This document shows, piece by piece, positions 18,364-43,324 of a stretch of DNA of 64,000 bases. Where the stretch lies: positions 9,811 through 73,810 of the IMG/VR virus record IMGVR_UViG_3300049845_000008; one strand, 5' to 3'. Position 1 is the stretch's first letter. Every line of letters begins with the position of its first letter. Below the pieces are notes generated by a model. That model searched no databases, was not told where the DNA came from, and saw only the letters and a list, made by a program, of their open reading frames with translations. This stretch comes from a virus. The position numbers and the translations under genes were made by a program.

Positions 18364-19188
18364 TTATCCTACGAGAAAATCTGGTGGCATTTCCCATGTG
18401 CTTCGAAGTTGTTCTTCTAGGCGAATGATATCGGCTACAGCCTCTTCGTAGATGCCTTGCCCGTTGATGATCATACCTCCCGGCAATGTGTAGTTACCGT
18501 ACTTCTTCATGTTCTCGCCCCACTGCTTCTTGATAAGCTGCGTAGAGTATTCCTTGAGCCACTCGTCGTTGTAGACCTTGGGGAAGTCCACGGGTTCGAT
18601 GACGCGGGTGCATTCGATCATGAGGTAGGTGTCAGCCGGAACTTCTGGCGCATTCCAGTGCATATCGATGTAGAGCCTGCCCATGTGCTTGCTGAACCGA
18701 ATCGGGTTCTGCCCGATAAGAATCATTTCCAACATGCGAATGTGGGTACGGGCAATCCAGTAATACTGGTAGGATGAACTGGTGAATTCGTAGAGTTCGT
18801 TCAGGCGCAACTGGTAGTTCAGGTCAAAGATATTGAAATTAGCACTAGAGCCGCCACCCGAAATGACTTCGCCGGTCAGAGGGAAGATGCGATTAACACC
18901 GACAACCCCTTCTGGCAGCGGAACCCAACCGTAACTGGAATTAGCGACTGTCGAGTTAGCCGAGGTCGCAGAAGCCACGTTGCTGCCGTTCGCCAACATG
19001 TCCGCAGTCATCTTGATGGCTAGGTAGTCGGGGAAGGTCGCATCGTAGTGGAACTGGACGTACTTCTGCAACGCATCGTCAATCCGGTCATCGACCTGAT
19101 CTTCGTCTACGTTAATGTCAATGACTGGAAAGCCTAGCTTGCGTAGGCAGTAGTCCTTGAGTGATGCTTTGTCGGTTGGTTTTGCCAT
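18364..19188 (-). CDS. gp13: Neck protein
   Basis: LKDYCLRKLGFPVIDINVDEDQVDDRIDDALQ, WLKEY...LIKKQWGENMKKY...LPGG. Confidence 0.95.
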   Translation of the reverse strand: MAKPTDKASLKDYCLRKLGFPVIDINVDEDQVDDRIDDALQKYVQFHYDATFPDYLAIKMTADMLANGSNVASATSANSTVANSSYGWVPLPEGVVGVNRIFPLTGEVISGGGSSANFNIFDLNYQLRLNELYEFTSSSYQYYWIARTHIRMLEMILIGQNPIRFSKHMGRLYIDMHWNAPEVPADTYLMIECTRVIEPVDFPKVYNDEWLKEYSTQLIKKQWGENMKKYGNYTLPGGMIINGQGIYEEAVADIIRLEEQLRSTWEMPPDFLVG

Positions 19189-19227
19189 CGGGTTCTGTCC
19201 CTGTGGATGCTGTGAGGTGTGGTGAAT

Positions 19228-19234
19228 TATTTAG
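19228..19234 (-). promoter_or_regulatory. Late promoter CTAAATA (gp13-gp17)
   Basis: Overlaps the stop of the upstream ORF. Confidence 0.7.
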
Positions 19235-19884
19235 GCAAACTTGATGCCCCTACTCTCAAGGAATCGGTAGTCTTCCTCAAGGTAGTCCCGAATCTCAGCC
19301 TCTTCGTGCGGGGCGAGCGCATCCCGATCCGGCAGGGTGATGGAATCGTTGATTTTGGGAATCGGCATGGGATTATCCACCCCGAGTTGAGTCAGAATCT
19401 TCGAAACCTCGTTTTGGTAGTCTTCGAAGTTCAACGGAATGACGGGACCGGAGAGCCATGGCTTGTGGGTTTTGCCATAGGGACCGCGCTCCATATGCAT
19501 CTTAAGCTTGCGAAACACTTCGATCATGGGAATACAGTCACACATTTGCCTCATTTCGTGCTTCTCCCATTCCCAATAGTTCTCCTGAGAGGTATAGGAT
19601 GCAGGTAAATAGCTACCATAGAATGCACGAAAGAACTTGGCGTGGTGTCGTCCGCGCCGCAGATAGTTCATGATGGAGATACACCGGTCAAGCGGATTCC
19701 GATAGAATGCGTAACATGTGTACTCATTCAAATTAGGGTATTCTTTCATTTCCTCGTATCTGGTATGAGCCTCGTCACACACGGCTAGTGGAATACCCAA
19801 ACCGGCAACCGCCGTTCGAAGTGCCTTGCTTCCGGTCCTAGGTGTGAAGAAAACCATGACCTTTCTTTCAGTGGAAAGTATCAT
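19231..19884 (-). CDS. Sulfotransferase-like protein (Sulfotransfer_2 type), paralogue 1
   Basis: 5'-PSB loop TPRTGSKAL, 3'-PB FYRNPLDRCIS, C-terminal EIRDYLEEDYRF. Confidence 0.8.
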   Translation of the reverse strand: MILSTERKVMVFFTPRTGSKALRTAVAGLGIPLAVCDEAHTRYEEMKEYPNLNEYTCYAFYRNPLDRCISIMNYLRRGRHHAKFFRAFYGSYLPASYTSQENYWEWEKHEMRQMCDCIPMIEVFRKLKMHMERGPYGKTHKPWLSGPVIPLNFEDYQNEVSKILTQLGVDNPMPIPKINDSITLPDRDALAPHEEAEIRDYLEEDYRFLESRGIKFA

Positions 19885-20180
19885 TGCCCATCTTTCAACT
19901 TGCGTTCTTCGTCTGTCAGAGGAATGGTTTCCATCAGATCAGCCGCGATTTCATACTTGTTGCCCTTGTAGCCGTGGCGAATGGATTCCCACAGGTACGA
20001 GAGGTAGAACTTGAACCAACCCTCTTCTTCGACCTGATAGATATGTTCTAGCTCATGGCGGAATAGGCGATCCGTGACTTCCTCTCGCGTGCGCTTGAAG
20101 AAGATGAATGGGTAGATGGTGATGCCGCCGATCCACGTTTTGCGGAGCGGAAGAAAGTGATAGACGATTCTGATTTTCAT
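19881..20180 (-). CDS. Small zincin-like metallopeptidase (HEXXH)
   Basis: GITIYPFIF...RHELEHIYQ...Y.GNKYEIAA (HExxH plus downstream Glu). Confidence 0.7.
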   Translation of the reverse strand: MKIRIVYHFLPLRKTWIGGITIYPFIFFKRTREEVTDRLFRHELEHIYQVEEEGWFKFYLSYLWESIRHGYKGNKYEIAADLMETIPLTDEERKLKDGQ

Positions 20181-20184
20181 TTTG

Positions 20185-20742
20185 TTATACCTTGAAGGTG
20201 ATGCCTCTTGATTCGAAAAACTCGTAGTCCTGCTTGTAGAATTCCTTTATGTACGTCACTTCTTCGGGAGTCAGGTCATTGACCGTTCTCCTGTTGTCAC
20301 TGGCATTCAGCCTAGGAATGTGAATGTTGTCTGGTATGCCAACGATGCGCAACACCTTTCTCATTTCGTTTTCGAAGTCGGCGTAGTCTAGCAGGTTGAC
20401 CTTCACCTCCTCCGGATTGAGCCACCGCACCTGCGGCACAAAGTAACCATACTTAGAAACATACTCCATGACGTTGCTGACTGGAACCATGTGTGAATAC
20501 TTCCTGTAGTTGAATGCCATGAAGGACAGAAACTTCTCCACCGGTTCCCGATAGAACGCATAGACCTGATATTCATCAACATTTGGAATATCGAGTTGTT
20601 TGATGCTAGGGTGATTGGTCTGATTCTCTGTATAGATCTTATCGATTTTACCATGATCCAGTAGAATCTGTCGCAATGTATGCGTACCCGTCTTGTGTGG
20701 GTAGAGGATAATGACTTTCTTTTTGGTGTCTACGTATGCCAT
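20185..20742 (-). CDS. Sulfotransferase-like protein, paralogue 2
   Basis: PHKTGTHTL, FYREPVEKFLS, PQVRWL, IKEFYKQDYEFF. Confidence 0.8.
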   Translation of the reverse strand: MAYVDTKKKVIILYPHKTGTHTLRQILLDHGKIDKIYTENQTNHPSIKQLDIPNVDEYQVYAFYREPVEKFLSFMAFNYRKYSHMVPVSNVMEYVSKYGYFVPQVRWLNPEEVKVNLLDYADFENEMRKVLRIVGIPDNIHIPRLNASDNRRTVNDLTPEEVTYIKEFYKQDYEFFESRGITFKV

Positions 20743-21182
20743 TATTTTTCTGCCGTAGCTGACATGGTATGAGTACCAGTTGCAATAAGAACACTGTTTG
20801 AGGTGTACCGAATTTCGACAGTGAGTGTTGCATCAAGAGTACCTGCGTTCTGTTGGTCGATTGAATAGCTTCTATCAGTTGCCATACCGATCCATGTGTT
20901 GTTTGCCCACCCTGCTGAGAATGTTGGAACTGTCGTTCCAGAAGTAAACGTGGCTCTCAACTGATAATCAGCCGAAGCACCCGCCAATCTCCACGCATAG
21001 GAAGAGGCTCCCGTGGTACCAAATACTTGACATGTTCCGTTTGCCCAATGCCAAATAGAAGCATTGGACGAATCTAAACCAGAATCAGCCACAGTCTTGT
21101 TCTGAACCTGCGCGTCAAGCACAGGCGGTGCAGCCGCCGCTTGCGCGTTGCCATAGGATAGGAGAATGTTGCGAATGCTCAT
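20742..21182 (-). CDS. Small beta-rich putative virion/fibre-tip protein
   Basis: Thr/Ser/Gly/Trp-rich; shares a YQ.RA...NTW...L.IR domain with 22171..23004 and 36074..37297. Confidence 0.55.
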   Translation of the reverse strand: MSIRNILLSYGNAQAAAAPPVLDAQVQNKTVADSGLDSSNASIWHWANGTCQVFGTTGASSYAWRLAGASADYQLRATFTSGTTVPTFSAGWANNTWIGMATDRSYSIDQQNAGTLDATLTVEIRYTSNSVLIATGTHTMSATAEK

Positions 21183-21850
21183 GGGAAGGTTATTCCCTTG
21201 GATGTGAAGAAGTCATAGTCATCCTGATAGAACGCACGAATCTCAGCCGCGTCTTCTGGTGAGAGAATATCGATATCGGGACGCTTCGGTTGTTCGTTCT
21301 CGTTGGGAAGAACCCTGTCAGGATTTGCTCCGAACGCAGTCAGTAGTCTTCTCATTTCCGCGTCGTGATCGTGGAAGTTAAGAAGGATTAGATTGATGGA
21401 CGGCTGATTTAGCCAGTTCACTTGCTTCGACCACGCCGCCAATCGCCCACTGTTGATTCGATCCTGCATTGCTCGCCAGACCTGAATCGGAGTGATGGTG
21501 TCGTTTGCAGCCTGCAATTCAGGAGAAAGATCCTCATAGAACTTTCGATTGAGGCATGAAATTCTTGCGCCGTTTCCCAAGACTCTGTGCATGATTTCAG
21601 CACACCACCGACGCTTCATGAACATCAGCATGGAGAGCGCACGATCTAATGGTTCCCGATAGAACGCATAGAAGGTGAACGCACCCAACTGTGATTGCAT
21701 CTGAGGAAACTGAACGAGCATTCCGTCCAGATTGATGTGATCGTGTGAGACATGCGTAAGCGATGCATCCCTGAACACTTCGTAGAGGGAATGTGTGGCT
21801 GTCTTTGGCGGCATGAATACCGCTAGTTTTCGGGTGTTATCAATGATCAT
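21179..21850 (-). CDS. Sulfotransferase-like protein, paralogue 3
   Basis: PPKTATHSL, FYREPLDRALS, KQVNWL, EIRAFYQDDYDFF. Confidence 0.8.
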   Translation of the reverse strand: MIIDNTRKLAVFMPPKTATHSLYEVFRDASLTHVSHDHINLDGMLVQFPQMQSQLGAFTFYAFYREPLDRALSMLMFMKRRWCAEIMHRVLGNGARISCLNRKFYEDLSPELQAANDTITPIQVWRAMQDRINSGRLAAWSKQVNWLNQPSINLILLNFHDHDAEMRRLLTAFGANPDRVLPNENEQPKRPDIDILSPEDAAEIRAFYQDDYDFFTSKGITFP

Positions 21851-22161
21851 TCTGTGTACGTCCCGTTGTAGATGCTCAGAATAACATCCACGTTATGATC
21901 CTGCATGGCAAGCACATCTGAGTTATTCTCAACCCAACTATCCAACACCAGATCCCGAACGTCGGCGGATGGAATGAAAGTCTGTGGTGTGGGAGGAGGA
22001 AGATCAACCCAATGTGCGCTGCGATACATCTGCCCTGTTTCCAGATCAGTTGTGAGAAGGAACACTCGCAGTCTGGTGTAGACAGTATCGTTGAAGGTTG
22101 CGTCGAAATAGGATTCAGCGTCTTCTAATGGTATGTAGACCTTATGCTTATACGATGCCAT
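21847..22161 (-). CDS. Hypothetical protein (possibly fibre-associated)
   Basis: 104-aa ORF with stop overlapping the next start; acidic; VDLPPPTPQTFIP...SWV. Confidence 0.55.
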   Translation of the reverse strand: MASYKHKVYIPLEDAESYFDATFNDTVYTRLRVFLLTTDLETGQMYRSAHWVDLPPPTPQTFIPSADVRDLVLDSWVENNSDVLAMQDHNVDVILSIYNGTYTE

Positions 22162-22170
22162 GATGTAATC

Positions 22171-23004
22171 TCACTTAAAGTTGTGGCTCAATACGCCTTC
22201 CATGAAGTATGTATGCGCGTCTTCGACTTCGAAGCTTACCACTTCACCGGCACCTACGTAGTCGATTGCGGTGATGGTACTCTTTCCGAGTCTCATGCCG
22301 ACGTTCAGCTTACAGGCGCGTATCAGAGTGTCACCGTCTTCCAGATAGAAACGATGCAAGTCCGAACAGATAATTTCCTTGCCATCATCGAATCTGATGC
22401 GAAACTTGATGGCTTGCTGTATCTTGATGTTGGTGATTGGATAGGAACCCAATTCTTTTGTCGTTTCGTGAACCGCAAGCACTTTCATTCCGACCTTTAG
22501 TTCACCCGCACGGATAGTGGATCCATTCGCAAGCGTGATGCGCATACTTGGATCCGGACAACCCAAATACTCATACTCTGCCGAACATTCACAATAGACG
22601 TTGGATATTAGTTTTAGAGAATTCTTTTCTCGCAATTGCAACCAAAACCGTATGTTGACTGCGGTAGTGGTTGTATAGATTCCCCACCACGGATCTGCAC
22701 CACAATCAATCCACGTATTTGCGGATGAACCCACAAGAGTTCCTCCCGATTGAGAGAAAAATCTTGCGTTGGCTTGATAGTTGTTTGCGCCGCCACCCTG
22801 CAACCAAATCATCTTCGGAAGTGTAGTGGTGAGTGTATTGGCTGTATAGAACGTGCCATTGCCCGTGATTGTATGTCCTCCACTATTCCATATCTTAATG
22901 TCAGCCTGAGTTCTCGGTCCCGGTGTCACAGCACCCGAATTATAGTTTCGCGATATGAAAGTCCCGAATCTAGACCACTGTTGCGTGCCACGCGCCACCG
23001 TCAT
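22171..23004 (-). CDS. Putative virion protein with C-terminal Hint (intein-like) autoprocessing domain
   Basis: G|[22 protein letters not shown] (block A), CSDLH (block B), [23 protein letters not shown] (blocks F/G). Confidence 0.85.
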
Positions 23005-26000
23005 GTGATATCTCCTGAAACAATCGCTTCACCCGTGGTGGTGTAGAAGATGGAGGCTACGGAATACCTTGCGGCAAGGTTCGATGTGATGTATCCTGCG
23101 GAGTTCAACTTCGCTACGCCCGTCGTGTTGGCAATGGTGACGTTGCCTGTGTTGGTTCTGATGATGGTGATACCGAAGCCTGCGTTGGTTGCAGCCGCGA
23201 GCGTGATCGTCATGGCTGTTGTCGAGTTGCAGAGCAGAACCTTACCTGCATGGTTATCGCTAACCGTTCGTGACGATGTTACCTGAATCATCGGCATGTC
23301 CGAGACATTGCTCGTCATTCTCACATTGCCGCTGAACAATACGTCCGAAGAAACCGTCGTGCCGAAGGACGTACCCTGAGTACCCTGTCTTCCCTGTACA
23401 CCCTGAATACCCTGCGCACCGGTAGCACCTTGCGATCCACCACCGCCACCGGTAGACTCAATGCTTCCTAGGAGATAGATGGCATTGGTTGCGGCGTAGA
23501 CGATGGTGACGGCTGAGTTCTGCGAAGCGATGTTCGAAGTGGTGAACGTCGTGCTGTTCGACTTGAGCGCAAGGTTAGCAATCGTGACATTGCCTGTTCC
23601 CTTACGAACCACCGTGACTGCAAAGCCAGAAGTAGACGAGTTAGCGAACGTGATCGTCGTCGCGGATCCGGAGTTGACTTCGACAATCTTACCTGCGGCA
23701 TTCTCAGCATAGTGCGTAGAAACGGCTGTAGTAATGATGGGTGTGTCAAACACCTGATCAGTGAACACCACGTTTGCGTTGAACGTAACGTCCGTGGCAA
23801 CTGTCGTGCCGAACGAAGTACCCTGAATACCTTGAAGCCCTGTTGCGCCCTGAGAGCCAGTACCGGTAGCACCTTGAGTGCCTGTACCTGTCGTTCCCTG
23901 CCGACCTTGAAGCCCCTGAATGCCTTGCAATCCGGTGGTGCCTTGTGCACCCGTAGCACCTTGAGTTCCTGTTCCGGTTGTGCCTTGCGATCCAGTTGCG
24001 CCTTGAGTACCGGTCAGTCCTTGTAGACCGGTCGTGCCTTGTGATCCACTTCCAGTGAGTCCTTGAAGACCCGTTGCACCTTGCGTGCCTGTTCCTGTGG
24101 TACCTTGAGTTCCAGTCAGTCCTTGTAGACCAGTGGTTCCCTGTGCGCCTGTTGCGCCTTGTGTTCCTGTGCCAGTTGCACCTTGCGTGCCGGTGCCAGT
24201 GGTTCCTTGCAGACCCGTAAGCCCTTGCAGACCAGTGGTTCCCTGCCGTCCTTGAATACCTTGCAATCCGGTCGTACCCTGAGAACCTGTAGTTCCCTGA
24301 ATGCCAGTTGTACCTTGAGAACCCGTAGTTCCCTGAATGCCAGTTGTACCTTGTGCGCCGTTCGTCCCTTGCAGTCCAGTCGTACCCTGCGCACCCTTCC
24401 GCGCAACAGCAAGCTTGATCTTGAAGTTGCTAGAGAATGAGGTTGTCGTTCCGTTGTTGATGAGTGAAAGCCCGAATTCATAGTAGCCCGTCTTATTGGT
24501 TTTAGACGTAACAGTATACGAGAAGAACTTGGACGCATCACCCGGATCTTGTAGAAGAAAAATGTCGCCTACATTCGTGTAGTTGAGGAACAAGCTTACG
24601 TCAACAGCACTATCGTTGAGAATGTCGATCCACATCAACGTTGCGAGTGTGAGGTTTGCGTTGTTCAGCTTCAACTTGCCCGAACCCGGATCAGAGTCCG
24701 TGGTGCCGGTGTCGAATCGATAGTCCGTTGCTAGCGCAGAAACACCTTCGTTGCCAGTGATGCCCTGAGTTCCTTGCGAACCTGTGGTTCCCTGCAATCC
24801 AGTCAAACCCTGTAGCCCTGTGGTTCCTTGTGAACCTGTGGTGCCTTGCGATCCAGTCAAACCCTGTAGTCCAGTCGTACCCTGCGAACCCGTCGTTCCT
24901 TGGCGACCTTGAATACCTTGCAGACCAGTAAAACCTTGAAGTCCCGTCGTGCCTTGTGCGCCTGTGGTTCCCTGTGCGCCAGTCGAACCTTGAATGCCTG
25001 TAGCACCCTGAGTTCCAGTCGCGCCTTGAGAACCTGTAATGCCCTGTAGTCCCGTTGCGCCCTGAGTTCCTGCACCGGTCGCACCTTGAGTACCGGTTCC
25101 AGTGAGTCCCTGTAGACCAGTCGTTCCCTGTGAACCCGTCGTTCCCTGTGAACCCGTTGTGCCTTGAAGACCCGTTAGTCCTTGCAGCCCTGTGGTGCCT
25201 TGTGCACCCGTGGTGCCTTGTGAACCGGTCGAACCCTGAATGCCTGTGAGTCCCTGTAGTCCGGTTGTTCCCTGTGCGCCAGTGGTGCCTTGTGATCCGG
25301 TGGACCCTTGAATGCCAGTTGCACCTTGAGTACCTGTCGTACCCTGAATCGATGTACCCTGAACACCCTGAATACCTTGTGCGCCTGTTGCACCGGCTGC
25401 GCCGCCGAGATTAACATCCCAATTGGTAAACGTGCCAGAGCCACCCGTGGTTGCAATGGATGCCACCATGGTTCCGTTTGCGACGTAGTAGGAACTGACG
25501 GACCCTTCCATCTTGTTGACAGCCGTGTTTGCGATAACAACAGACTGTCCTGTGGAGTATGCAAGTCCGGTTGCAATGGTAAGTTGCTTAGTTCCGGTGC
25601 CAATTGTCAATGAGGTTGTAGACGTTGTGGCATACTTGTCACCGGCATTGCCCGTCGTGCCTTGAACACCCTGAATTCCCTGTGCACCGATTGTTCCTTG
25701 TGCACCGGTGAATCCCTGAATGCCAGTAGCCCCTTGTGAGCCAGTCGTACCTTGAACACCCTGAATGCCTTGTGCGCCGGTCGTACCCTGAGTTCCGGTA
25801 AGTCCTTGAAGTCCGGTCGTTCCCTGCCGTCCTTGAATACCTTGCAAACCAGTGATGCCCTGTGCACCGGTCGAACCTTGTGTGCCTGTGAATCCTTGAA
25901 TTCCTGTTGCGCCTTGAGAACCAGTCGTGCCTTGTGCGCCAGTGGTTCCCTGAGAACCTGTCGAACCCTGTAGACCAGTGGTTCCCTGCCGACCTTGAAT

Positions 26001-26654
26001 GCCTTGGCTTCCGGTCGCACCTTGGCTTCCGGTCGCACCTTGGCTTCCGGTCGCGCCTTGCAACCCTGTCGTTCCCTGTGCACCCGTCGAACCCTGAATG
26101 CCCGTAGCGCCTTGAGTTCCGGTTGCGCCTTGTGCACCAGTAATACCCTGATTAGAGATACCCTGAATACCTTGAATGCCGGTGAAGCCTTGAATGCCAG
26201 TGGCACCCTGAACACCCGCGCCGGTCAGACCTTGTGTGCCTTGCAGTCCGGTCGATCCCTGAGTACCTGTCGCGCCCTGAGAACCTGTGATGCCTTGAAT
26301 GCCCTGTGCGCCGGTTGATCCCTGAGTTCCAAGTGCGCCTTGCGTACCGGTGGCACCCTGAGTGCCTGTTGTTCCTTGCGGTCCTGCGACGGTACCGGCA
26401 ATGATCATGGAAACGTTGGCGTTGCCGGTCGGTCCCTGCGTCACGGATACGAGAATGTCGCTTGTGTTTACAAAGTTGATTCCGTTGGCATTGATGGTGG
26501 ATGCAGAGTTGGCTGAGACAAGAACTTCGGAGATTCCTCCACCACCGCCGAGTCCACCGCCTGCTTTCCAAGAATAGCCATCCCACTCCCAAGATGTACC
26601 ATCATTGGAAGTGAAGATCGTACCGATGATGGGATTGGAAGGAAAGTCTGCCAT
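23001..26654 (-). CDS. Collagen-like fibre protein 1 (GxQGxT repeats interrupted by globular domains)
   Basis: Hundreds of Gly-X-Y triplets; N-terminal FPSNP..G....WEWDG..W; tandem duplicated C-terminal domain. Confidence 0.85.
26002..26055. repeat. Three tandem 18-bp units (ccttggcttccggtcgca) within the collagen gene
   Basis: Near-identical DNA copies of one hexapeptide unit. Confidence 0.8.
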
Positions 26655-26688
26655 GAATGTACTCTAAGGTGGAAAGAGCTATGCCACC

Positions 26689-26695
26689 TATTTAG
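26689..26695 (-). promoter_or_regulatory. Late promoter CTAAATA heading the collagen fibre-Hint-sulfotransferase unit
   Basis: Intergenic, 34 nt upstream of the 26654 start. Confidence 0.7.
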
Positions 26696-26701
26696 CCGCT
26701 G

Positions 26702-27454
26702 TCAGATGACGACAACTTGGGATCTAGGTCTAATCACTGCGTCTGCGGTTCCAATCAGTGCGCCTGTCCAAGCTGCCATGACGTTTGCGGCTGCGACGTT
26801 GACGCGAAGATTTCCCGTCTGTCCCGCAGAAGGTTTACGGAAAGTAAGTAGCGCAATGGCACCACCACCACCCGAAGTTGTACCCAAATCATGCTGTTTT
26901 GTCAAGTTTGTTTCATCACCCGAAGGGGAGTTAATGAAAAGTTGTCCTGCGGCATTGATAATGGCTGCGGCTGAGTCGCGTGCGTGAGTGACGTAATTCA
27001 GAACGAGTGTGTTGGCTACTGTGGTTGTGACATTTCGGAATGTTACCTGTGCCGAGGCAGTGCTGACCACAACGTTGACACCGGCTGCTGTTCCAGTATC
27101 CCACGGACTACCCGATGTTGGCACATTGTAAAATGCTGACATAACTGCCATCGTATGATCACCAAAGTCAGTGATGGATACAGCCGTCTGAGATTGTGAT
27201 GTGGCACGTTGCCACCATACGTCAACTTTTGTAGCCTGTGCACCGCCTAGTGTACCGACCGTGACGTTAGAGTTTGCAACACGCGCCCAACCATTGTTCG
27301 TCAGGTTGGTGTGGGCTTGTGCGTTGGACTGGTTTGCACCTTCCAAAGCAAGAACTAGAATGTCGTTGACCTGATAGCCGGTCGGAAAAGTAAGTGTAAT
27401 CGAACCTGTACCCGAAACATAGGAAGAGTTAGCGCGAAAGGTTGGAGCAGGCAT
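26702..27454 (-). CDS. Putative minor virion structural protein
   Basis: T/S/G/A-rich beta composition; LTFPTGYQVNDILVL motif typical of phage minor tail proteins. Confidence 0.6.
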   Translation of the reverse strand: MPAPTFRANSSYVSGTGSITLTFPTGYQVNDILVLALEGANQSNAQAHTNLTNNGWARVANSNVTVGTLGGAQATKVDVWWQRATSQSQTAVSITDFGDHTMAVMSAFYNVPTSGSPWDTGTAAGVNVVVSTASAQVTFRNVTTTVANTLVLNYVTHARDSAAAIINAAGQLFINSPSGDETNLTKQHDLGTTSGGGGAIALLTFRKPSAGQTGNLRVNVAAANVMAAWTGALIGTADAVIRPRSQVVVI

Positions 27455-27465
27455 TTCAAATCACC

Positions 27466-30303
27466 TTATGGGTCAAGATGCAACGCAACCGTGATGACGT
27501 TTGCGTTGACTACCGAAGGAGCGGAGTTTACGCGGAACTGAATGACGTTACCGGCAGCGATGACACCCGAAGACCATCCGGTGATGGAAGCACTGGTGTT
27601 CTTGCGAAGCGTGTCTAGTCGTGGAGAATTTGTCTGAGAAATCATGACTTCGTTCGTGAAGTCTGCAAGAGTAGTTGTCCAGATATCTACGCGAATCGTA
27701 GCCGATGCCGAATTTGCATCCGACATGATTGACCATCCTGCGATGTTGCAGGCTTGTGAAGTGTAGATATAGCCCTTACTCTGTGCGGCTTCCGTAGTAC
27801 CTGTCGCAATGATTGCTCCACCACCGTCGATGATGAAGTTGAGTGTGCGAGGACCGGCAATACCTTGAATGCCTGTGAGTCCTTGAAGACCCGTCGTTCC
27901 TTGCGATCCGGTTCCGGTCGTGCCTTGCGTTCCTTGAAGTCCAGTTAGCCCCTGCAAGCCGGTAGCACCTTGCGTCCCTGCACCGGTAGTACCTTGAGTT
28001 CCTTGAAGTCCAGTCAGCCCTTGAAGCCCCGTTGCGCCCTGTGTGCCTGCACCCGTGGTTCCTTGCGTCCCTTGAATGCCTTGCAGACCTGTAGTACCTT
28101 GCGAGCCGGTTCCAGTCAGACCTTGCAATCCGGTGGCACCCTGAGTTCCTGTTCCAGTTGTTCCTTGAGTTCCTTGAAGTCCAGTCAAACCCTGAATACC
28201 GGTTGCGCCTTGAGTTCCCGCGCCGGTTGTACCCTGCGTTCCTTGCAGACCAGTTAGCCCCTGAATGCCTGTTGCACCCTGAGTTCCGGTTCCGGTCGTT
28301 CCCTGAATACCTTGCAACCCGGTCGTGCCTTGTGCGCCCGTGGTGCCTTGGCTACCGGTTCCTGTGAGTCCTTGCAGACCCGTTGCACCTTGCGTGCCGG
28401 TTCCGGTTGTGCCTTGTGTTCCCTGAAGTCCGGTGAGTCCTTGCAGACCTGTTGTACCTTGGCTACCCGAACCCGTAAGTCCTTGCAGCCCCGTCGTTCC
28501 CTGCGAGCCAGTGGTTCCTTGCAGCCCCGTCGTTCCCTGCGAGCCAGTGGTTCCTTGAAGACCTGTGGTGCCTTGTGAACCGGTAGCACCCTGAGTACCT
28601 GCGCCCGTGGTTCCCTGAATACCTTGAAGTCCGGTCGTACCCTGACTTCCGCTTCCAGTCAAACCTTGCAGACCGGTTGAGCCTTGAGTACCCGTTGCGC
28701 CTTGTGTTCCCGCACCAGTGATGCCTTGAATACCCTGAATACCGGTTGCACCCTGACTTCCGCTGCCGGTCAATCCCTGTAGACCAGTGGTTCCCTGTGA
28801 TCCTGTTGTGCCTTGGCTTCCAGTGAGTCCTTGTAGTCCTGTTGCACCTTGAGTTCCGGTTGCACCCTGCGCACCCGAACCAGTCAATCCCTGTAGACCC
28901 GTCGTACCCTGTGAACCGGTGAGTCCTTGCAGCCCTGTGGTTCCTTGTGAGCCAGTGGTTCCCTGAAGTCCGGTTGTTCCCTGCCGACCTTGCAAGCCTT
29001 GGATGCCTTGTAGCCCGGTGGCACCTTGCGAACCACTCGTTCCCTGCGCACCATTCGTTCCCTGAGAACCTGTAAGTCCCTGAATGCCTGTGAGTCCTTG
29101 AAGACCCGTCGTGCCTTGTGCGCCGGTTGTTCCCTGTGAGCCTGTAAGCCCCTGTAGACCAGTTGCGCCTTGCGTACCGGTCGATCCCTGTAGCCCGGTG
29201 GTTCCTTGTGAACCTGTGGATCCCTGTAGACCAGTCGTACCCTGCGAGCCTGTGGATCCCTGTAGACCAGTGGTTCCCTGTGAGCCTGTAAGCCCCTGTA
29301 GTCCTGTAGTGCCTTGCGATCCTGTTGCGCCCTGTGTACCGGCACCGGTCGCACCTTGAGGACCAGTTGCACCGGGAGTTCCTGCGAGGTTGATGCTCCA
29401 AGAAGTGAACGTACCTGTGCCGATGACAGAAGCAACGTCAACCACCAACTGTCCGTTTCCGGCGTTGTAGGAGTTGACCGTACCTTCCATGGAGTGCGTC
29501 GAGTCATTCGCAATGATGACCGTCTGCCCTGCTGAGTAAGCCAAACCAGTGTCTACCGTCAGTGTCTTCTGTGCGACGGTAATCGAAAGAGAAGTCGTAG
29601 AGGTTGTTACGTATTGGTCGCCGGGTTCACCGAGCGTTCCTTGAACACCCTGAATGCCTTGCAGACCTGTAGTACCTTGCGTACCCGTTGAACCTTGCAA
29701 TCCGGTCGTGCCTTGAGAACCTGTAGTTCCTTGGCGACCCTGAATGCCTTGAATACCCTGCAAACCAGTGGTGCCTTGAGTGCCTGTGGTTCCTTGTGCA
29801 CCATTCGTTCCCTGTGTGCCGGTTGCACCTTGCGTGCCTGTGCCGGTGAGTCCTTGCAGACCCGTTGCACCTTGCGTACCTGTGCCTGTGGTTCCCTGTG
29901 CACCGGTCGAACCCTGCGTACCACTTCCGGTCAACCCCTGAATGCCGGTCGAACCTTGTGTGCCTGTGAGTCCTTGAAGTCCAGTGGTTCCCTGTGTTCC
30001 TGCGCCCGTGGTGCCTTGCGTTCCGGTTGCGCCTTGTAATCCAGTGGTGCCTTGAACACCCTGAATGCCTTGGGATCCGTCGCCCGTTCCACCGCCGCCT
30101 GCCGGTCCTTGAATACCCTGAATGCCTTGTGCGCCGTTGCCCGTTCCACCACCGGGACCGACAAAGTATCCGGCTGAGTTGATGACGAGTTGATTACCAA
30201 CCTGAACCTCGGCTGCATTGACAACACCGTTCGCCAACACCACGTTTGCGAGCGTGTTGCTGCTGTTAATGCGAATCTGTTTTGAGGTAGGCTTGTTTGG
30301 CAT
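27466..30303 (-). CDS. Collagen-like fibre protein 2
   Basis: Long (GxQGxT)n tracts, internal TSTTSL.I globular domain, C-terminal [12 protein letters not shown] domain. Confidence 0.85.
28481..28552. repeat. Two exact tandem 36-bp units within collagen gene 2
   Basis: ccttgcagccccgtcgttccctgcgagccagtggtt x2. Confidence 0.8.
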
Positions 30304-30327
30304 GTTCTTTTTCCGGAAGGATCCTGA

Positions 30328-30334
30328 TATTTAG
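30328..30334 (-). promoter_or_regulatory. Late promoter CTAAATA
   Basis: Intergenic, upstream of collagen fibre 2. Confidence 0.7.
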
Positions 30335-30336
30335 GC

Positions 30337-30783
30337 TTATGCCCAAATCCTTCGCCTGTTCTTTACGTTTGCAGGATCGAATAGCTTCACGTTATTCGGT
30401 CCCACATAGCCGGGAGGTTCGCCTGCGCGTGAGATATCTTCCCATACCAGACCGGGAATGAGGGAAAGAATGCGAGTTCGCTCAAAGACGTTGCCTTCTG
30501 TGGGCATTCCTTCTGTTAACAGTTCTTCTAACGCGCCACCGGCAATCAGAATATTCACATGATGCCCATAGACGATTTCGGGTGGAGTCGTCGGAATGCC
30601 ATTGACAAAGACGGATTCCTTCTTTACTAGGTTGCCAATCTCGTCCACATGAAGTCCCGGCACATAGAGTAAAGAACCGGTTTCGGTTATGGTCGCGAGT
30701 GGCGTTCCATCCGGCAGATAGGTCGAGGTCATTCCTTGAATGAATTCTTCTCTTGTCGGAACGTAGACTAGAATCTCAATCAT
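30337..30783 (-). CDS. Hypothetical protein, probable partner of the upstream repeat protein
   Basis: HVDEIG...GHHVNI...P...RRIWA; 3 nt from the upstream gene. Confidence 0.6.
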   Translation of the reverse strand: MIEILVYVPTREEFIQGMTSTYLPDGTPLATITETGSLLYVPGLHVDEIGNLVKKESVFVNGIPTTPPEIVYGHHVNILIAGGALEELLTEGMPTEGNVFERTRILSLIPGLVWEDISRAGEPPGYVGPNNVKLFDPANVKNRRRIWA

Positions 30784-30786
30784 GCG

Positions 30787-33700
30787 TCATTCTCCCTTCT
30801 TCACCATTTCTCTAAGAGCGAGGGTGGTGATTCCAAAAGGAATGAACACGAATCTCTTGATGCAGGAGTTGAAAGCATTGTTGGTTGTTTGACCAAATCG
30901 AATTGTGTAACCACCCCTAAACGTACCGTTGCCTTGAGCTTCTGAGGATGTTGTGGCTCTTGTTCCACAATATGCACGGAGCGTTCTTCCTTCGTCACCC
31001 CACGACATAGCCATCTTGTAGGTACCCGGCTTAGACAACTGAGGCATTGCCGCAGAGACAACAGCGTTAGAGAAGTTTATTGAGGCTGGATTGTTGTTGT
31101 AGCCGATGGTTTGATTGCCGATGTTTCCTAAGTTTGTAATTGTCGCATAATGCCCATAGAAGTATTGCATCGTAGGGTTCTGAACGAATTCGATGTATAT
31201 GGTTCCCTGACCGGTTGAAAATGCTGATGAATAAGCAGTATTAGACAACAGAACAGTCTCGACCGCTCTGGTAGCCGCTACCGTTTCGGTGTAGATGGGA
31301 GTCGTCATAATTCCAGAGGATGCTCCAACAGGCGGAATCTCAATCTGTGCAAAGTCGAGTGCAAGTTCATCACCAGAGGTTACGATTCTGATACCACAAG
31401 CAGGATTGCTTGTGATGGAAGACAAATACACGCGAGTCCAGTTCTCATCGATTGAGAAGTCTGTCCATATCAGCCCGTCCATGCTGATCTGAACGACACC
31501 CGTGCCGGTCAGCCGCTTCACATAGATTCCCGATGCCCACCATCCGTGTCCGCGAGTGATTTGCTGAATAATGGTTGCATTGGCTCCGGTCGCGGTAAAC
31601 CGTGTGGCGGTGTTTACTCTGCCGTCAATACCAGTCTCCGTCAGAGCAACGGTAGCATTGGTCTTTGTCCATGCTGATTGGGTGCCATCACGACACCACA
31701 GAAGTTCATTGGTTCTTGCTTCCTCTTGAAACAGCCCGTTACAGACTGGCATTGTCTTGAGAAGAGCATAGTATGGATATATCTGATTGGTTGCTTCATA
31801 CGTAGTGTTTGCATTGGCTTGTTCTAGCTGCGCACCCCAAATGCGAATGCCGTCCGATCCATTCGGTGTAAATGTGTTGAAGATTGAGTTTGAGTTCAGT
31901 CCTGCGCTCACGTTCAGGCTTGAACGGGGTCCAGTGAGAATGGTTCCGCGAGTGACTGTTGTTCCCGTATTTGCTTTCACCGAGCAACGATACCAACCAT
32001 CACCCACCGAATTGATTTCGGTCGTATTGGCGTAAACTCCGTTTGCGATGAGCGTTCCGGAAATCAGGTTGTAGGTCGCTGAGTGACCCACCGGATTTGT
32101 TGCATCCGAACCAACGCCCAACATGAGCGTATGATATTCATCAGCCTTTGCGTAGACTGAGAAAGTGTGTGGTACTGTTGATGTTGTAGCCGGTCTTTGG
32201 AAGATGCCGTGGGTATTTGAGCTTACACCAGTTCCGATGAGTTTCAGTGCGTTGTTCCCACCATCCGGTGAAGGATAGAAGATTGGAGCATATGCATATT
32301 GGGCTGTAGCGGTGGTACTGTTGGCAAAGGCTTCGTTGACATTTCCCGGCACAACCTGCGCCTTGTACAGAATCACATCGGAGTTGGCTACGGCTACATG
32401 AGAAGGTGCGCGACCATTCACGATACTATTGCCAGTGAAAGATATGGTCAAACCGGCTGCGCCGGAAGTCAGATTCGAAGTGGCTGTCATTATCAAATCG
32501 TAGACACCATTACCTACGCTAATAATGCTTGGAGTACAGTTGAAGGAGTTTTCAATTGCTCCGGTGGTGACGTTGAAGTTGGCAAATGAGTTTGGGAAGT
32601 TTGATCCACTACCAGAAAGCTGAATGATGGATTGAGCATTTGCGCCAGTTCCTTTCTTGACACGCACACTACTTGTATATTCTGTTCCGGAGTATGATTG
32701 AAAACCGGCACTGGCAATCATGTGTTGCGATGAACCCACTGTTGCGGTAAACACATTTGCGCCGGGAGAGCCGGTGACAGATCCGCCTGTTTTTGTCCAG
32801 TTAGACAGTGAGAAATCTTCAGACGATTGCACCAAACTTGCCTTGATGTTTGCAGATAGAGCGGTCCAATAGATGTAGAAGTCTTCCGAAGAAACAAGAA
32901 GATTCTTACTGGACGTATTCGCCATGTAGGACGAAAGTGGTCCTTCTTCAAACTGCGCACCCCAAATGTACATGTATTTGGTAGGGTCGCCAGTGTACGT
33001 GGCTTGTCCATCGGCTGTATTGATGTACAGGTTAGGGTTCAAGCTATTCGTTACTGATGTAAACGTGACAGAGCAACGATACCACCCGTTTCCAACATTG
33101 GCGATTGCGGCTGTGTGGAGAGAGTTTGCCGTTGCGACGGTTCCGCCTGCAATATTGAACCATGTTCTTACACCACCATCAGGACTCAAGGAAATGAAAT
33201 CTCTATTTCCTTGCTTCACATAGTAACTCAGCGTGTACACTTTACCGGGAATGAATGCGACTATGTTTGGCGACCGGTTCAGAATGTGGTTGTTATTAAC
33301 AGAGGTTTCTGAAAGCTTGGCTGCGGTGTATGAACCATCCGGAGCGGTGGTTTCCGGAGTGTCCGGAATGAGTGTTGTCGATCCTCCTGCGGTTGACCAA
33401 TTGGCACCAACGAAATTATCTGAGGATGGAATGATGTTCTTATTCGTCCATGAACAGAACTGCCAGTCGAAACGCGGCAGTCCGTAATTGGTTTCGATGA
33501 ATGGTGAAGCAGAAGCACCTGCCTCAATTTGTACACCCCAAACATACACACTGGATATATCGTCGCCAGTATAGGTGAAGTTGAGTGCGTCGGTTACTTG
33601 CTGTGCCAGAGAAAAGAAAGCACTGGATACGCCCGATGATTGAGCGACCCAAGAAACCACGCAGCGATACCAACCATCACCAACATCCGTAATAGAGGCA

Positions 33701-34344
33701 GTGGCAGAACCGGTTCCATTGACGCTTGTGGCTGTTCCGTTTTGAAGGTCGAACACTCCACCAGATGATCCGCTGACAGCAAAGTTTCCATATATCTGAA
33801 AGAATCGACTACCGACACCCGCTTTAGCATAAGCAGAATATGTGTAGGTGTTGCCACCGACAACAGTGACAACAGCAGCACTTGTCACCAATTGATGAAC
33901 AGATGAAACGCTACTCTCTGTGATCAGACAGGCTGACAGAGAACCATTTGGCGCAGGAAAATTCTCACCCAAATAAACGTTGTTTTTCTGCCATACGTTA
34001 TTGTCACCAAACCTTTGATATGCTCCTGACAAAATTTGATTTGGATTGGTCGTTGAATACTTCAACAGACCGTCTTGCCCAATATAGCTGCCGTTGGATG
34101 GACGAGTGAAGATGATCTGATCCATCGCGCTGCCCTTACCAAACCCCTTTACGTATCCAATGTTGTTGGAGAAGTCAAGGTCGATGGTGGCTCCCGGCAG
34201 AATGCCGATATCCTTGTATTCGCCTTCTGTGATTGGAAGCGTTCTGAGCTTCTTGCGCAGATTCGGACCACGCGAAAGGGCTGATCCTTGCACAGCAAGG
34301 TCAGTCGTCATGCGATTCAGCCCATGGGATAGCTTTTCACTCAT
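30787..34344 (-). CDS. Large virion spike/fibre protein with repeated carbohydrate-binding-like (jelly-roll) modules
   Basis: Three clear repeats P.G...A.(K/L)...H...(Y/H)T.S.Y.K...GWYRC...WG.Q.E plus divergent copies. Confidence 0.75.
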   Translation of the reverse strand: MSEKLSHGLNRMTTDLAVQGSALSRGPNLRKKLRTLPITEGEYKDIGILPGATIDLDFSNNIGYVKGFGKGSAMDQIIFTRPSNGSYIGQDGLLKYSTTNPNQILSGAYQRFGDNNVWQKNNVYLGENFPAPNGSLSACLITESSVSSVHQLVTSAAVVTVVGGNTYTYSAYAKAGVGSRFFQIYGNFAVSGSSGGVFDLQNGTATSVNGTGSATASITDVGDGWYRCVVSWVAQSSGVSSAFFSLAQQVTDALNFTYTGDDISSVYVWGVQIEAGASASPFIETNYGLPRFDWQFCSWTNKNIIPSSDNFVGANWSTAGGSTTLIPDTPETTAPDGSYTAAKLSETSVNNNHILNRSPNIVAFIPGKVYTLSYYVKQGNRDFISLSPDGGVRTWFNIAGGTVATANSLHTAAIANVGNGWYRCSVTFTSVTNSLNPNLYINTADGQATYTGDPTKYMYIWGAQFEEGPLSSYMANTSSKNLLVSSEDFYIYWTALSANIKASLVQSSEDFSLSNWTKTGGSVTGSPGANVFTATVGSSQHMIASAGFQSYSGTEYTSSVRVKKGTGANAQSIIQLSGSGSNFPNSFANFNVTTGAIENSFNCTPSIISVGNGVYDLIMTATSNLTSGAAGLTISFTGNSIVNGRAPSHVAVANSDVILYKAQVVPGNVNEAFANSTTATAQYAYAPIFYPSPDGGNNALKLIGTGVSSNTHGIFQRPATTSTVPHTFSVYAKADEYHTLMLGVGSDATNPVGHSATYNLISGTLIANGVYANTTEINSVGDGWYRCSVKANTGTTVTRGTILTGPRSSLNVSAGLNSNSIFNTFTPNGSDGIRIWGAQLEQANANTTYEATNQIYPYYALLKTMPVCNGLFQEEARTNELLWCRDGTQSAWTKTNATVALTETGIDGRVNTATRFTATGANATIIQQITRGHGWWASGIYVKRLTGTGVVQISMDGLIWTDFSIDENWTRVYLSSITSNPACGIRIVTSGDELALDFAQIEIPPVGASSGIMTTPIYTETVAATRAVETVLLSNTAYSSAFSTGQGTIYIEFVQNPTMQYFYGHYATITNLGNIGNQTIGYNNNPASINFSNAVVSAAMPQLSKPGTYKMAMSWGDEGRTLRAYCGTRATTSSEAQGNGTFRGGYTIRFGQTTNNAFNSCIKRFVFIPFGITTLALREMVKKGE

Positions 34345-34358
34345 GGTGAGTTAGACTC

Positions 34359-34778
34359 TTAGTAGTCTTCAGCCATCGCAACAAACGTCATCGACCTACC
34401 GGCTGTGATAGCGACCTGAGAATTGGCTCTCAGCACATAGCCTGCGGGAAGTGGCAGCACGCGCTTTCCGTTCGCATCGTATGGAAGCGAAGGGAATAGA
34501 GTACCACCGAGAAGATCAGTGGTTGCGGTAGTACCGTTGTTACCGGCAGCAACCGCAACTTGCGTAGAGCCGATGTAGATATCCTGTGCGCCATCGTGAA
34601 CATAGATGTTGACAGTTCTTGCGGCTGTGTCGGTGGAAACGGCATGAAGTGACTTCACAACAGAATCATTCGTTCCAGCCGTGAATACGTTCACGATGCC
34701 AGTGCCGTTGGCATTGACGAGAACATTGGCTGTCAGCTTGAAATTCTGCGTGAAATAGAGGTTAGTTGACTTTGGCAT
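34359..34778 (-). CDS. Hypothetical virion protein
   Basis: Beta-rich 139-aa ORF tightly packed in the fibre operon. Confidence 0.6.
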   Translation of the reverse strand: MPKSTNLYFTQNFKLTANVLVNANGTGIVNVFTAGTNDSVVKSLHAVSTDTAARTVNIYVHDGAQDIYIGSTQVAVAAGNNGTTATTDLLGGTLFPSLPYDANGKRVLPLPAGYVLRANSQVAITAGRSMTFVAMAEDY

Positions 34779-34779
34779 G

Positions 34780-35700
34780 TTAGTATCCCGTTAAAATTAG
34801 ATTGGTGAGGGTTTGAAGAGGAACGGTGTTTGCATCAGCCCCGGTTGTTCCCTGAATACCTTGTGCACCCGATCCTGTGGTTCCCTGCAAACCAAAGGAT
34901 CCCTGAATACCGGTTAAACCCTGAATGCCCGTGGTTCCTTGAATGCCTTGTGCACCAGTGATACCTTGCAGTCCACTGAAACCCTGAATGCCCGTTGCTC
35001 CTTGAGAGCCTGTGATGCCTTGAGAGCCTGTGATGCCTTGTAGTCCAACAGAACCCTGTGTGCCTGTGGCTCCTTGAATACCGGTCGATCCTTGAGTTCC
35101 GATGGCTCCCTGCGATCCTGTCGATCCCTGAGTACCTGTCGAACCCTGAATACCAGTGAGTCCCTGTGTTCCGATGATGCCTTGCGTTCCGTCAGAACCT
35201 TGAATGCCTGTCGATCCCTGAGTACCGGTGGCACCCTGAACACCCGCACCCGTGACACCCTGAACACCATAGAATCCCTGAATACCGGTCGCGCCTTGCG
35301 ATCCCGAACCCGTTGCACCCTGAAGTCCCTGAAGTCCTGTGGCACCCTGTACACCGTCGATGATGCCGATGGAAGTGAAGATACGAGCTTCGACCGTATC
35401 ACCTTCGTCGGGAGCGACCACAAAGTTAAGGGTATTCCCCGAGAGTGTGTAATGAGTATTAGGAACCTGAACGACACCGTTGAGGGTGACGATGATAAAG
35501 TCAGTTCCGTAAGGACGATGGCTCAGAACATAGGAAGACTCAGCTACGCCTGCGACAAACGTATCGCTGATGATGGTAGTGTTACCATCCGTACCGTCCG
35601 ATCCCGGCACGCCTGCGCGAATGTTGATGGTTCCTAGGGACGATACCGGGGATACCTCAACCTTGCCGACGCGATTCTGAGACTTGATTTCAACCTTCAT
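34780..35700 (-). CDS. Collagen-like fibre protein 3
   Basis: IIVTLNGVVQVP..HYTLSGNTLNF..AP domain followed by GxQGxT repeats. Confidence 0.8.
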   Translation of the reverse strand: MKVEIKSQNRVGKVEVSPVSSLGTINIRAGVPGSDGTDGNTTIISDTFVAGVAESSYVLSHRPYGTDFIIVTLNGVVQVPNTHYTLSGNTLNFVVAPDEGDTVEARIFTSIGIIDGVQGATGLQGLQGATGSGSQGATGIQGFYGVQGVTGAGVQGATGTQGSTGIQGSDGTQGIIGTQGLTGIQGSTGTQGSTGSQGAIGTQGSTGIQGATGTQGSVGLQGITGSQGITGSQGATGIQGFSGLQGITGAQGIQGTTGIQGLTGIQGSFGLQGTTGSGAQGIQGTTGADANTVPLQTLTNLILTGY

Positions 35701-36029
35701 TACCTAGTGACCTGTGGCGTAATCGTGACAATGCCTTCGATGACGCGAATGGTCACGTTGGAACTGTCTGTCATTTTGAGGTCGTAGAGATACCGTCCCG
35801 GCTTGATGTTGGCTGTGTTGGCTGCGGGAATGGAGAGGCGAACCAATCCGTTTGCGGCGTCTTCTTTCGTGACCGTGATGATGGCTGTCGCGTTGACCGA
35901 GTAATAGGACTTACGAATTTCAGCCGAAAACGTACTGTCGGTGATGTTGATCACCGAGTTGTCGTCGTTCGTTAGATTGATGGTAGACGAAAATGTTGCG
36001 CCTTGATCAATGGTGAGTTCTGCATACAT
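35700..36029 (-). CDS. Small beta-sandwich virion adaptor (IDQGATF family)
   Basis: LTIDQGATFS, IRKSYYS, PGRYLYDL, RVIEGIVTITPQVT. Confidence 0.7.
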   Translation of the reverse strand: MYAELTIDQGATFSSTINLTNDDNSVINITDSTFSAEIRKSYYSVNATAIITVTKEDAANGLVRLSIPAANTANIKPGRYLYDLKMTDSSNVTIRVIEGIVTITPQVTR

Positions 36030-36056
36030 GTGGAACGTTCCTCTGAGGATTCCAGT

Positions 36057-36063
36057 TATTTAG
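36057..36063 (-). promoter_or_regulatory. Late promoter CTAAATA
   Basis: Intergenic, followed by a GAGGA RBS. Confidence 0.7.
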
Positions 36064-36073
36064 GCGTAAGGGA

Positions 36074-37297: not shown

Positions 37298-37299
37298 GA

Positions 37300-43317: not shown

Positions 43318-43324
43318 TATTTAT
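43318..43324 (-). promoter_or_regulatory. Late promoter ATAAATA between the two DUF4815-type halves
   Basis: Intergenic, at the upstream stop. Confidence 0.65.

Follow-up and report, generated by a model that had tools for sequence, protein, structure and literature searches.

A promoter-bounded fibre cassette with three small sulfotransferases in an uncultured T4-like phage, and the possibility that they act on the phage's own fibres

We describe here a group of eight genes in a 64,000-nucleotide stretch of viral DNA (hereafter the window), which comprises bases 9811-73810 of the 73.8-kb IMG/VR contig IMGVR_UViG_3300049845_000008 (estimated completeness 41%) and which encodes three sulfotransferase paralogues (ST1, ST2 and ST3) together with a collagen-like fibre. 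The genes lie on the minus strand between CTAAATA motifs at 26689 and 19228, directly upstream of the neck gene gp13, and are read in the order collagen-like fibre, Hint protein, orf104, ST3, beta146, ST2, HEXXH protein and ST1, followed by gp13. They are tightly coupled, with successive junctions of -4, +9, -4, -4, -1, +4 and -4 nt, such that neighbouring genes mostly overlap at their stop and start codons. Coordinates, junctions and motif scan in this respect bear out the gene order, the coupling and the single leading CTAAATA of a preliminary description of this DNA. The features of the locus are the following.

19231..19884, minus strand: ST1, 217 aa, the most divergent paralogue, with PRTGS (Lys-to-Arg in the 5'-phosphosulfate-binding, or PSB, loop) and a Gln104-to-His change
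20185..20742, minus strand: ST2, the minimal paralogue, 185 aa, with PHKTGT, His44, Arg65 and Ser73
21179..21850, minus strand: ST3, 223 aa, with PPKTAT and, further on, FYREPLDRALS
26689..26695, minus strand: late-promoter motif CTAAATA at which the cassette opens, 34 nt 5' of the collagen fibre ATG
19228..19234, minus strand: late-promoter motif CTAAATA for gp13; it overlaps the stop codon of ST1 and closes the cassette
23001..26654, minus strand: collagen-like fibre, 1217 aa, first gene of the unit (Pfam Collagen, 3e-85)
22171..23004, minus strand: Hint protein, 277 aa, with a beta domain at the N-terminus and the Hint domain at the C-terminus (Pfam PT-HINT, 1.5e-4)
21847..22161, minus strand: orf104, which at its stop codon overlaps ST3 by 4 nt
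20742..21182, minus strand: beta146, a small Ser/Thr-rich Ig-like beta-sandwich with a disordered N-terminus (AlphaFold2 (AF2) model, mean predicted local distance difference test score (pLDDT) 86.5)
19881..20180, minus strand: HELEH (HEXXH) protein, 99 aa, a mini metallopeptidase-like domain, DUF4157/eCIS_core-like (weak match)
18364..19188, minus strand: gp13 neck protein, the conserved anchor (PHROG 211 head-tail adaptor, 1e-34; identity in related loci 37-88%)
26702..27454, minus strand: orf250, the upstream flank of the cassette, whose homologue in the related locus L040 adjoins gp13 (phmmer 1.6e-71)

Matches to PHROG families 3' of the cassette run in the order gp13, gp14, gp15, gp16 and gp17 (small and large terminase) and gp18 (tail sheath), and the large terminase, which is at most 49% identical to that of any GenBank phage (50,697 records), finds its best matches in OM43 phage Melnitz, Pelagibacter phage Mosig and cyanomyophages. 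Considering these structural genes and the distant terminase matches, the window derives from an uncultured T4-like myovirus. Public sequencing runs that contain window sequence are freshwater and freshwater-sediment metagenomes, and since contigs from a second, independent study are 100% identical over ST2-beta146-ST3 and over ST3-orf104-Hint, the gene arrangement is real and no artefact of assembly.

CTAAATA is the published late-promoter consensus of the T4-like phage Aeh1 (PMC1524935). Ten copies are found in the window against 2.9 expected (none of 100 shuffles reaches ten), nine of them on the minus, coding strand, and the sites checked sit just 5' of gene starts; no NNTAAATA site other than those at 26689 and 19228 falls within 19000-27500. 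Promoter-like (sigma-70-like) and terminator-like hairpin matches inside the unit show no excess over chance. Moreover, CTAAATA also stands 5' of sulfotransferase-containing units in relatives, as in L022, where it lies ~180 nt before a block of sulfotransferase, glycosyltransferase family 1 (GT1), DUF6445 and GT2 genes. The motif and the coupling agree with the earlier placement of these enzymes behind a late promoter together with a fibre gene, and suggest that the cassette genes are probably expressed late in infection.

Several lines of evidence point to ST1, ST2 and ST3 being sulfotransferases, which we regard as very likely. Identity among the three proteins, which are homologous to one another, is 31-33% (tblastn E 1e-15 and 3e-11), and each gives a weak match to the PHROG 'galactose-3-O-sulfotransferase' family; against Pfam Sulfotransfer_2 (PF03567; cut-off 22 bits) ST2 reaches 30.3 bits (E 6e-7), and ST1 and ST3 have no Pfam match of their own. 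When 55 diverse members of the family were compared with Pfam, 37 matched Sulfotransfer_2 and every other Pfam family was matched by at most one member. We modelled ST2, the only paralogue so treated, with AF2 from a 24-sequence alignment (pLDDT 86.2, predicted TM score 0.80), and found by VIA-align that the model superimposes on the heparan-sulfate sulfotransferases NDST1, 3-OST and 2-OST with Z 9.3-10 (root-mean-square deviation 3.5-4.1 A over 172-177 of 185 residues), on 6-OST with Z 8.0 and on cytosolic SULTs with Z of about 7. All 50 VIA matches listed are sulfotransferases, as are all Foldseek matches listed but one, retinol dehydratase, which is itself a sulfotransferase-fold enzyme. 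One might argue that ST1-ST3 are P-loop kinases or other nucleotide-binding proteins that merely share this fold, given the absence of an own Pfam match for two of them, the weak Foldseek E-values to the PDB (best 6e-4) and a phmmer and a profile search of PDB sequences that gave nothing useful. However, with sulfotransferases making up all or nearly all of the structural matches listed, the named BFVD matches nearly all annotated as sulfotransferases, none of the 55 members matching a kinase family and the cofactor motifs conserved as described below, we consider this very improbable.

The motifs by which such enzymes bind 3'-phosphoadenosine-5'-phosphosulfate (PAPS) are present in all three proteins. 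The 5'-PSB loops read PHKTGT (ST2), PPKTAT (ST3) and TPRTGS (ST1), and of 74 sulfotransferase-family sequences 61 have Lys and 13 have Arg as the basic residue of the loop, with Gly19 conserved in 96%. The 3'-phosphate-binding (3'-PB) motif FYR-x-P-xx-R-xx-S is nearly invariant in the same set (Arg65 100%, Pro67 100%, Ser73 99%), such that the PSB loop and the 3'-PB Arg...Ser motif together are 99-100% conserved, and the candidate catalytic base His44, present in all three paralogues, is conserved in 91%. Gln104 is otherwise 99% conserved and is His in ST1. The PAPS-type fold that the preliminary description had expected is in this way predicted by AF2, Foldseek, VIA and Pfam family matches alike, and the PRTGS/HKTGT/PKTAT loops, FYR.P...S and shared C-termini it had listed are all confirmed. 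Although the heparan-sulfate enzymes are the best structural matches (Z 8-10) and have both motifs in common with the phage proteins, identity to them is 12-16%, and the phage enzymes, without the acceptor-binding elaborations, are unusually small, stripped-down sulfotransferase cores of 185-223 aa. They are also predicted to be cytoplasmic, with inspection of the N-termini by eye revealing neither a signal peptide nor a membrane segment and the PSB loop starting at about residue 14, whereas their heparan-sulfate counterparts are Golgi lumenal. An insert of ~35-45 residues distinguishes the three subfamilies, which therefore probably differ in acceptor or in the position modified.

The paralogues are not the local duplicates they were first taken to be. 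In a maximum-likelihood tree ST2 falls into a clade of its own with orthologues in the related loci L006-L009, and ST1 and ST3 into another, in which the nearest relative of ST3 is P0025 (73% identity) and the closest match of ST1 is P0045 (43% identity); a recent local duplication is ruled out, as all three belong to old subfamilies whose closer relatives are found on other contigs. L006-L008 likewise carry three sulfotransferase genes, two of them from other subfamilies, and thus these phages assemble varied combinations of old subfamilies. A database search returned 2,353 representative homologues of the family. Among the 50,697 GenBank phage records neither megablast/blastn of the 3.8-kb enzyme block nor tblastn of ST1, ST2 and ST3 gave a match, and two motif-limited pattern scans of 185,579 prokaryote species genomes with the family signatures revealed no relative. 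Since these prokaryote scans were limited to motifs, the family can only provisionally be called virus-only.

We then consider where these genes lie in relatives, using two samples: 28 viral contigs that encode a sulfotransferase relative, and 80 loci anchored on gp13. Among the former, gp13 lies within 10 kb downstream of the sulfotransferase gene in 21 of 28 loci, and most of those with sufficient flank have collagen-like open reading frames upstream of it, so that the linkage to structural genes proposed at the outset extends to relatives. Among the latter, sulfotransferase genes are confined to the closest clade, with gp13 at least 63% identical. Even there two loci, L040 and L041 (gp13 ~80% identical), are without the sulfotransferase and HEXXH genes. 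In L040 the whole cassette is absent and the orf250 homologue adjoins gp13 across a canonical TATAAATA site (L040 9230-10001); compared with this arrangement, window 19188-27454 has a 7.4-kb fibre and sulfotransferase unit inserted, with a CTAAATA copy at each end. As L040 lacks the entire unit, 19231-26695 constitutes one promoter-bounded accessory insertion relative to it, and late promoters may serve as the joints of such cassettes.

Within the relatives a small protein, either of the beta146 type or with the N-terminal motif IQTEFGGSNP..SEYY, is repeatedly encoded ahead of a sulfotransferase gene, its stop codon overlapping the start of the enzyme, and one or the other is found directly 5' of the enzyme in L009, L010, L038 and L039 (twice). 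The gene arrangement looks like a pairing of enzyme and partner. Proteins with the broader motif IQTE[FY]GGSNP..[SN]EYY occur at L009 1250-1801, L010 9426-9998, L038 484-1977, L041 5533-6069 and, in L039, 5082-5609 and 7474-8967; in 5 of these 6 cases they sit directly upstream of a sulfotransferase, and in most the stop codon overlaps or abuts the start of the enzyme. They match no Pfam family and, for L041 alone, one PHROG family of unassigned function, and may be virion-anchored acceptors or adaptors.

More distant T4-like relatives show a different company. Beside their fibres we find blocks of a 2-oxoglutarate (2OG) oxygenase (2OG-FeII_Oxy_3), a sulfotransferase and DUF6065, and other neighbours of the enzyme include GT1, GT2, DUF6445 and a GT60-type polypeptide GlcNAc transferase (L013 9408-11356, L020 9986-12024, L022 9224-13778, L017 6895-11511); a 2OG-Fe(II) hydroxylase is co-encoded with the sulfotransferase in L013, L020 and L022. 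In one contig, L011, the homologue lies beside a deoxynucleotide monophosphate kinase and not beside fibres. This last case could be taken to mean that the acceptor is a small molecule, a peptide or a nucleotide-linked metabolite, in line with the assignment of many bacterial oxygenase/sulfotransferase clusters to secondary metabolites (Iyer et al., PMC2938197). By a related argument one or more of the paralogues, and ST1 especially with its changes at the PSB Lys and at Gln104, might be dead binding or scaffolding proteins. Yet fibres and neck genes are the dominant context, biosynthetic scaffold genes (nonribosomal peptide synthetase, ATP-grasp) were not seen in the window, and Arg in the PSB loop, being found in 13 of 74 family members, is a tolerated variant; we therefore think either possibility unlikely.

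The gene with which the cassette opens offers a plausible substrate. The collagen-like fibre contains 211 G-X-Y triplets and no proline, with Gln at 52% and Thr at 40% of Y positions and Thr at 30% of X positions. Fibre genes occupy 23-40 kb of the window, and its four collagen-like proteins are essentially without Pro or Lys and have Thr at 32-40% of Y positions. Considering this composition, hydroxylation would be pointless for these collagens, and hydroxyls are plentiful. We infer that the three enzymes are catalytically active and use PAPS as donor. Late in infection these cytoplasmic proteins would take host-made PAPS and transfer its sulfate onto hydroxyls of the phage's own fibre components before or during assembly, and the fibres would gain an anionic coat. 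The hydroxyls would belong either to Thr, Ser or Tyr residues in the collagen-like and beta-domain proteins or to sugars that these proteins carry. That the acceptor is a component of the virion fibres is the reading we tentatively favour, at slightly less than an even chance.

Three side observations concern these fibres. Metagenome contigs of other runs show many skips and rearranged joints within the repeats of the collagen fibre (23400-26350), which suggest that repeat length varies in the fibre gene or that the assembly slipped there. A further protein, orf876 (37300-39930, minus strand), has collagen repeats and, at its C-terminus, a Peptidase_S74 intramolecular chaperone domain, and matches to its C-terminal region sit shortly 5' of sulfotransferase genes in several relatives. 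Lastly, the collagens of the window (23001-39930) and of L017, L018, L020, L022, L066 and L076-L090 fall into distinct classes by composition: proline-free G-x-Q/G-x-T in the clade of the window, G-P-Q in many loci without sulfotransferase genes and G-[S/Y]-[T/K], where Tyr occupies as much as 43% of X positions, in L017, L018 and L020, which have sulfotransferase and oxygenase genes. Collagen type as a predictor of sulfotransferase presence was rejected, as the trend is only loose and confounded by phylogeny, with L040 having Gln/Thr collagens and no sulfotransferase.

If the fibres carry sulfated sugars, enzymes that build such sugars might be expected nearby, and the preliminary description had called for a scan for glycosyltransferases and PAPS genes. 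None emerged: the 74-kb contig (41% complete) has no match to GT1 (PF00534), GT2 (PF00535) or APS kinase (PF01583), the last being adenosine 5'-phosphosulfate kinase. We extended these checks to a complete relative, G001 (172.6 kb, 100% complete), in which a single distant GT2 is present. Neither the contig nor G001 has a match to the 2OG oxygenase family PF13640 or to DUF6065 (PF19541), nor does either have one to APS kinase, for which the control was positive in 12 of 14 genomes; PAPS must accordingly be made by the host. The acceptor hydroxyls in the window's clade are native Ser/Thr/Tyr or host-made sugars.

A number of these observations, and several others, weigh against sulfation of the fibres. 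Without GT1, GT2, a prolyl-4-hydroxylase-like oxygenase, DUF6065 or APS kinase, the contig offers no visible source for a glycan acceptor, and the nearest solved folds to the ST2 model are carbohydrate, not protein, sulfotransferases. Many relatives have similar collagen-like fibres and no sulfotransferase, among them L040 and L041 of the closest clade, and L059, L066, L076-L090 and L098 have other collagen types and likewise no sulfotransferase; because L040 has a like collagen without the enzymes, the collagen fibres do not depend on them. Transcription is hinted at, weakly, by four short contigs of a sediment metatranscriptome library that match 21565-21700 (ST3), 21900-22071 (orf104, at 100% identity), 23488-23745 (collagen) and 27008-27236 (orf250), where carry-over of DNA is possible. 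We found no paper reporting sulfate on a phage virion, and the published view of enzymes in comparable islands is that they modify the O-chain of the host (PMC7029224).

This published view leads to a rival reading in which the enzymes modify the host, sulfating the O-chain of its lipopolysaccharide (LPS), an exopolysaccharide or their cytoplasmic precursors, such that the altered surface blocks superinfecting competitors or stops progeny from sticking to debris. The same study (Zaragoza-Solas et al. 2020, PMC7029224) described the host recognition cluster (HRC) of pelagimyophages and cyanomyophages, whose glycosyltransferases it read as O-chain modifiers. The cassette sits in the HRC of the window's phage, which like the published ones is a hypervariable island in the structural module that ends at gp13/gp14 and mixes fibre genes with carbohydrate-type tailoring enzymes. 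The island here ends at the neck genes, with gp13-gp18 directly downstream, and is not syntenic between close relatives (L040 and L041 are without the sulfotransferase and HEXXH genes, and L006-L008 have another sulfotransferase set); for the upstream VrlC boundary there is no certain candidate, a DUF4815 protein lying at 43324-47343. Additional support for a host-directed role comes from the cyanophage ACG-2014f, whose distant homologue lies far from gp13 in an LPS-type sugar-nucleotide and glycosyltransferase cluster (GDP-mannose dehydratase, epimerases and GT11/GT6/GT25 genes), from the carbohydrate sulfotransferases among the best structural matches and from the lack in the contig of any phage glycosyltransferase to build a virion glycan. 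The HRC paper describes glycosyltransferases and makes no mention of sulfotransferases, while the window has three of the latter, no glycosyltransferase and a single promoter-bounded unit. However, the enzymes stand behind a late-promoter motif, coupled to a fibre gene, in a unit gained or lost as a whole, whereas remodelling for exclusion would be expected early; in relatives they pair with small fibre-like or beta-domain proteins, and all sampled viral contigs except L011 place the family among or next to fibre and neck genes and not metabolic genes. Modification of the host is thus a serious alternative, which we judge to be the case with perhaps one chance in three or slightly less.

Returning to sulfation of the phage's own fibres, the most direct version would dispense with glycan and hydroxylase steps altogether. 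ST1-ST3 would then be protein O-sulfotransferases acting on Thr, Ser or Tyr, with the proline-free G-x-Q/G-x-T collagens and Ser/Thr-rich beta-sandwich tip proteins as targets and each sulfotransferase subfamily paired with its own small acceptor protein. O-sulfation of proteins at Ser/Thr is not known to have been traced to its enzymes in any organism, and we consider this version doubtful. If true, the virus-only family would provide the first such enzymes, along with a combinatorial 'sulfo-code' on host-recognition fibres.

Previous studies have anticipated parts of this picture, and the idea is not wholly new. Iyer, Abhiman, de Souza and Aravind (2010, PMC2938197) predicted, for bacterial operons, that collagen-like and T4 tail-collar proteins are first hydroxylated and then sulfated, and the 2OG oxygenase-sulfotransferase blocks of the distant relatives fit this scheme. 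In gene content the window cassette resembles these systems, a sulfotransferase being co-encoded with a collagen-like protein proposed as its substrate. They differ in that the bacterial systems have beta-hydroxylases and often a PAPS synthetase (in several, not all, operons), whereas the window's contig has neither and its collagens are without Pro/Lys. Among giant viruses, the gene clusters for fibrils contain genes of sulfate metabolism, and L230 of Mimivirus adds hydroxyl groups and glucose to viral collagen-like proteins, an activity demonstrated on peptides in vitro (both reviewed in PMC9614988). Those systems and the cassette, in its proposed role, have in common virus-encoded enzymes for the virus's own surface fibres, but giant viruses have eukaryotic hosts and large glycosyltransferase and sugar-nucleotide pathways, with Tupanvirus carrying its own sulfate adenylyltransferase (SAT)/APS kinase, and sulfation is unproven there; nor was any sequence relationship found, beyond the common fold (Foldseek 1e-4 to 1e-3), between the phage enzymes and the sulfotransferase-fold proteins annotated in giant viruses. 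Virion glycosylation of the chlorovirus, mimivirus or mycobacteriophage type requires a glycosyltransferase, and the 74-kb contig has none by the searches above.

Among phages, annotated sulfotransferase-family genes occur in Synechococcus ACG-2014f, Prochlorococcus P-SSM7, Ralstonia phiRSL1 and Synechococcus S-T4 (BFVD TM 0.5-0.7), and Gp5.1 of Roseobacter phage SIO1 has the same fold and is not annotated as a sulfotransferase. The ACG-2014f protein matches our family profile at 1e-7; it is a single copy in a sugar-biosynthesis cluster, in contrast to the three enzymes of the fibre/neck unit described here. A 2023 paper called the function of phage sulfotransferases unclear (PMC10580990). The earlier statement that no phage system of this kind had been described was therefore overstated, since phage genes of this family are annotated, sulfation of collagens was predicted in 2010 (PMC2938197) and the HRC is published (PMC7029224).

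Should the fibres be sulfated, how abundant aquatic T4-like phages adsorb, which hosts they infect and how stable their particles are would be shaped by an anionic layer that cannot be read from fibre sequence, and prediction of host range from fibre sequence alone would miss a layer. Published HRC work left open whether such islands decorate the virion or modify the host surface, and because it has no glycosyltransferase or hydroxylase the present cassette makes a clean test of the two. The 185-aa sulfotransferase cores could in addition serve as useful enzymes.

As for the remaining genes of the unit, the Hint protein matches Pfam PT-HINT, Intein_splicing and Hint, all below the cut-off. Its Hint domain runs from Cys149 to a terminal His-Asn-Phe-Lys-stop and has neither a +1 nucleophile nor an endonuclease, so that it cannot splice and probably cleaves itself. 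Cleavage would free the N-terminal beta domain, possibly as a thioester. Orf104 gave no usable Pfam, PHROG or Atlas match, and its Atlas model is poor (pLDDT 0.48).

The gene called a HEXXH peptidase in the preliminary description does encode the motif, as HELEH; its identity as a peptidase finds only a weak eCIS_core/DUF4157-like match (Pfam E 0.12), together with PHROG 'protease' at 1e-4. In relatives this gene adjoins gp13 directly, and in the window ST1 sits between the two. Within the gp13-anchored sample it is present in all ten sulfotransferase-bearing loci and absent from loci without sulfotransferase, apart from L029, which with only 459 bp of upstream sequence is unscorable.

Structure searches with the beta146 model returned generic Ig-like matches only (Foldseek TM 0.3-0.4; VIA Z at most 6.9). 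Orthologues of beta146 are flanked by sulfotransferase genes in L006-L010, and its profile matches the N-terminal parts of Hint-protein homologues in L006 and L007; direct BLASTP between beta146 and the 277-aa Hint protein of the window is marginal (E 0.018). The underlying ~100-aa beta-sandwich domain, recognizable by an 'NNTW' motif, stands free in the window at 20742-21182 and occurs also at L010 9426-9998, L007 8189-8956 and L006 1082-1963, and it apparently recurs C-terminally in the Gly-rich orf407 (window 36074-37297).

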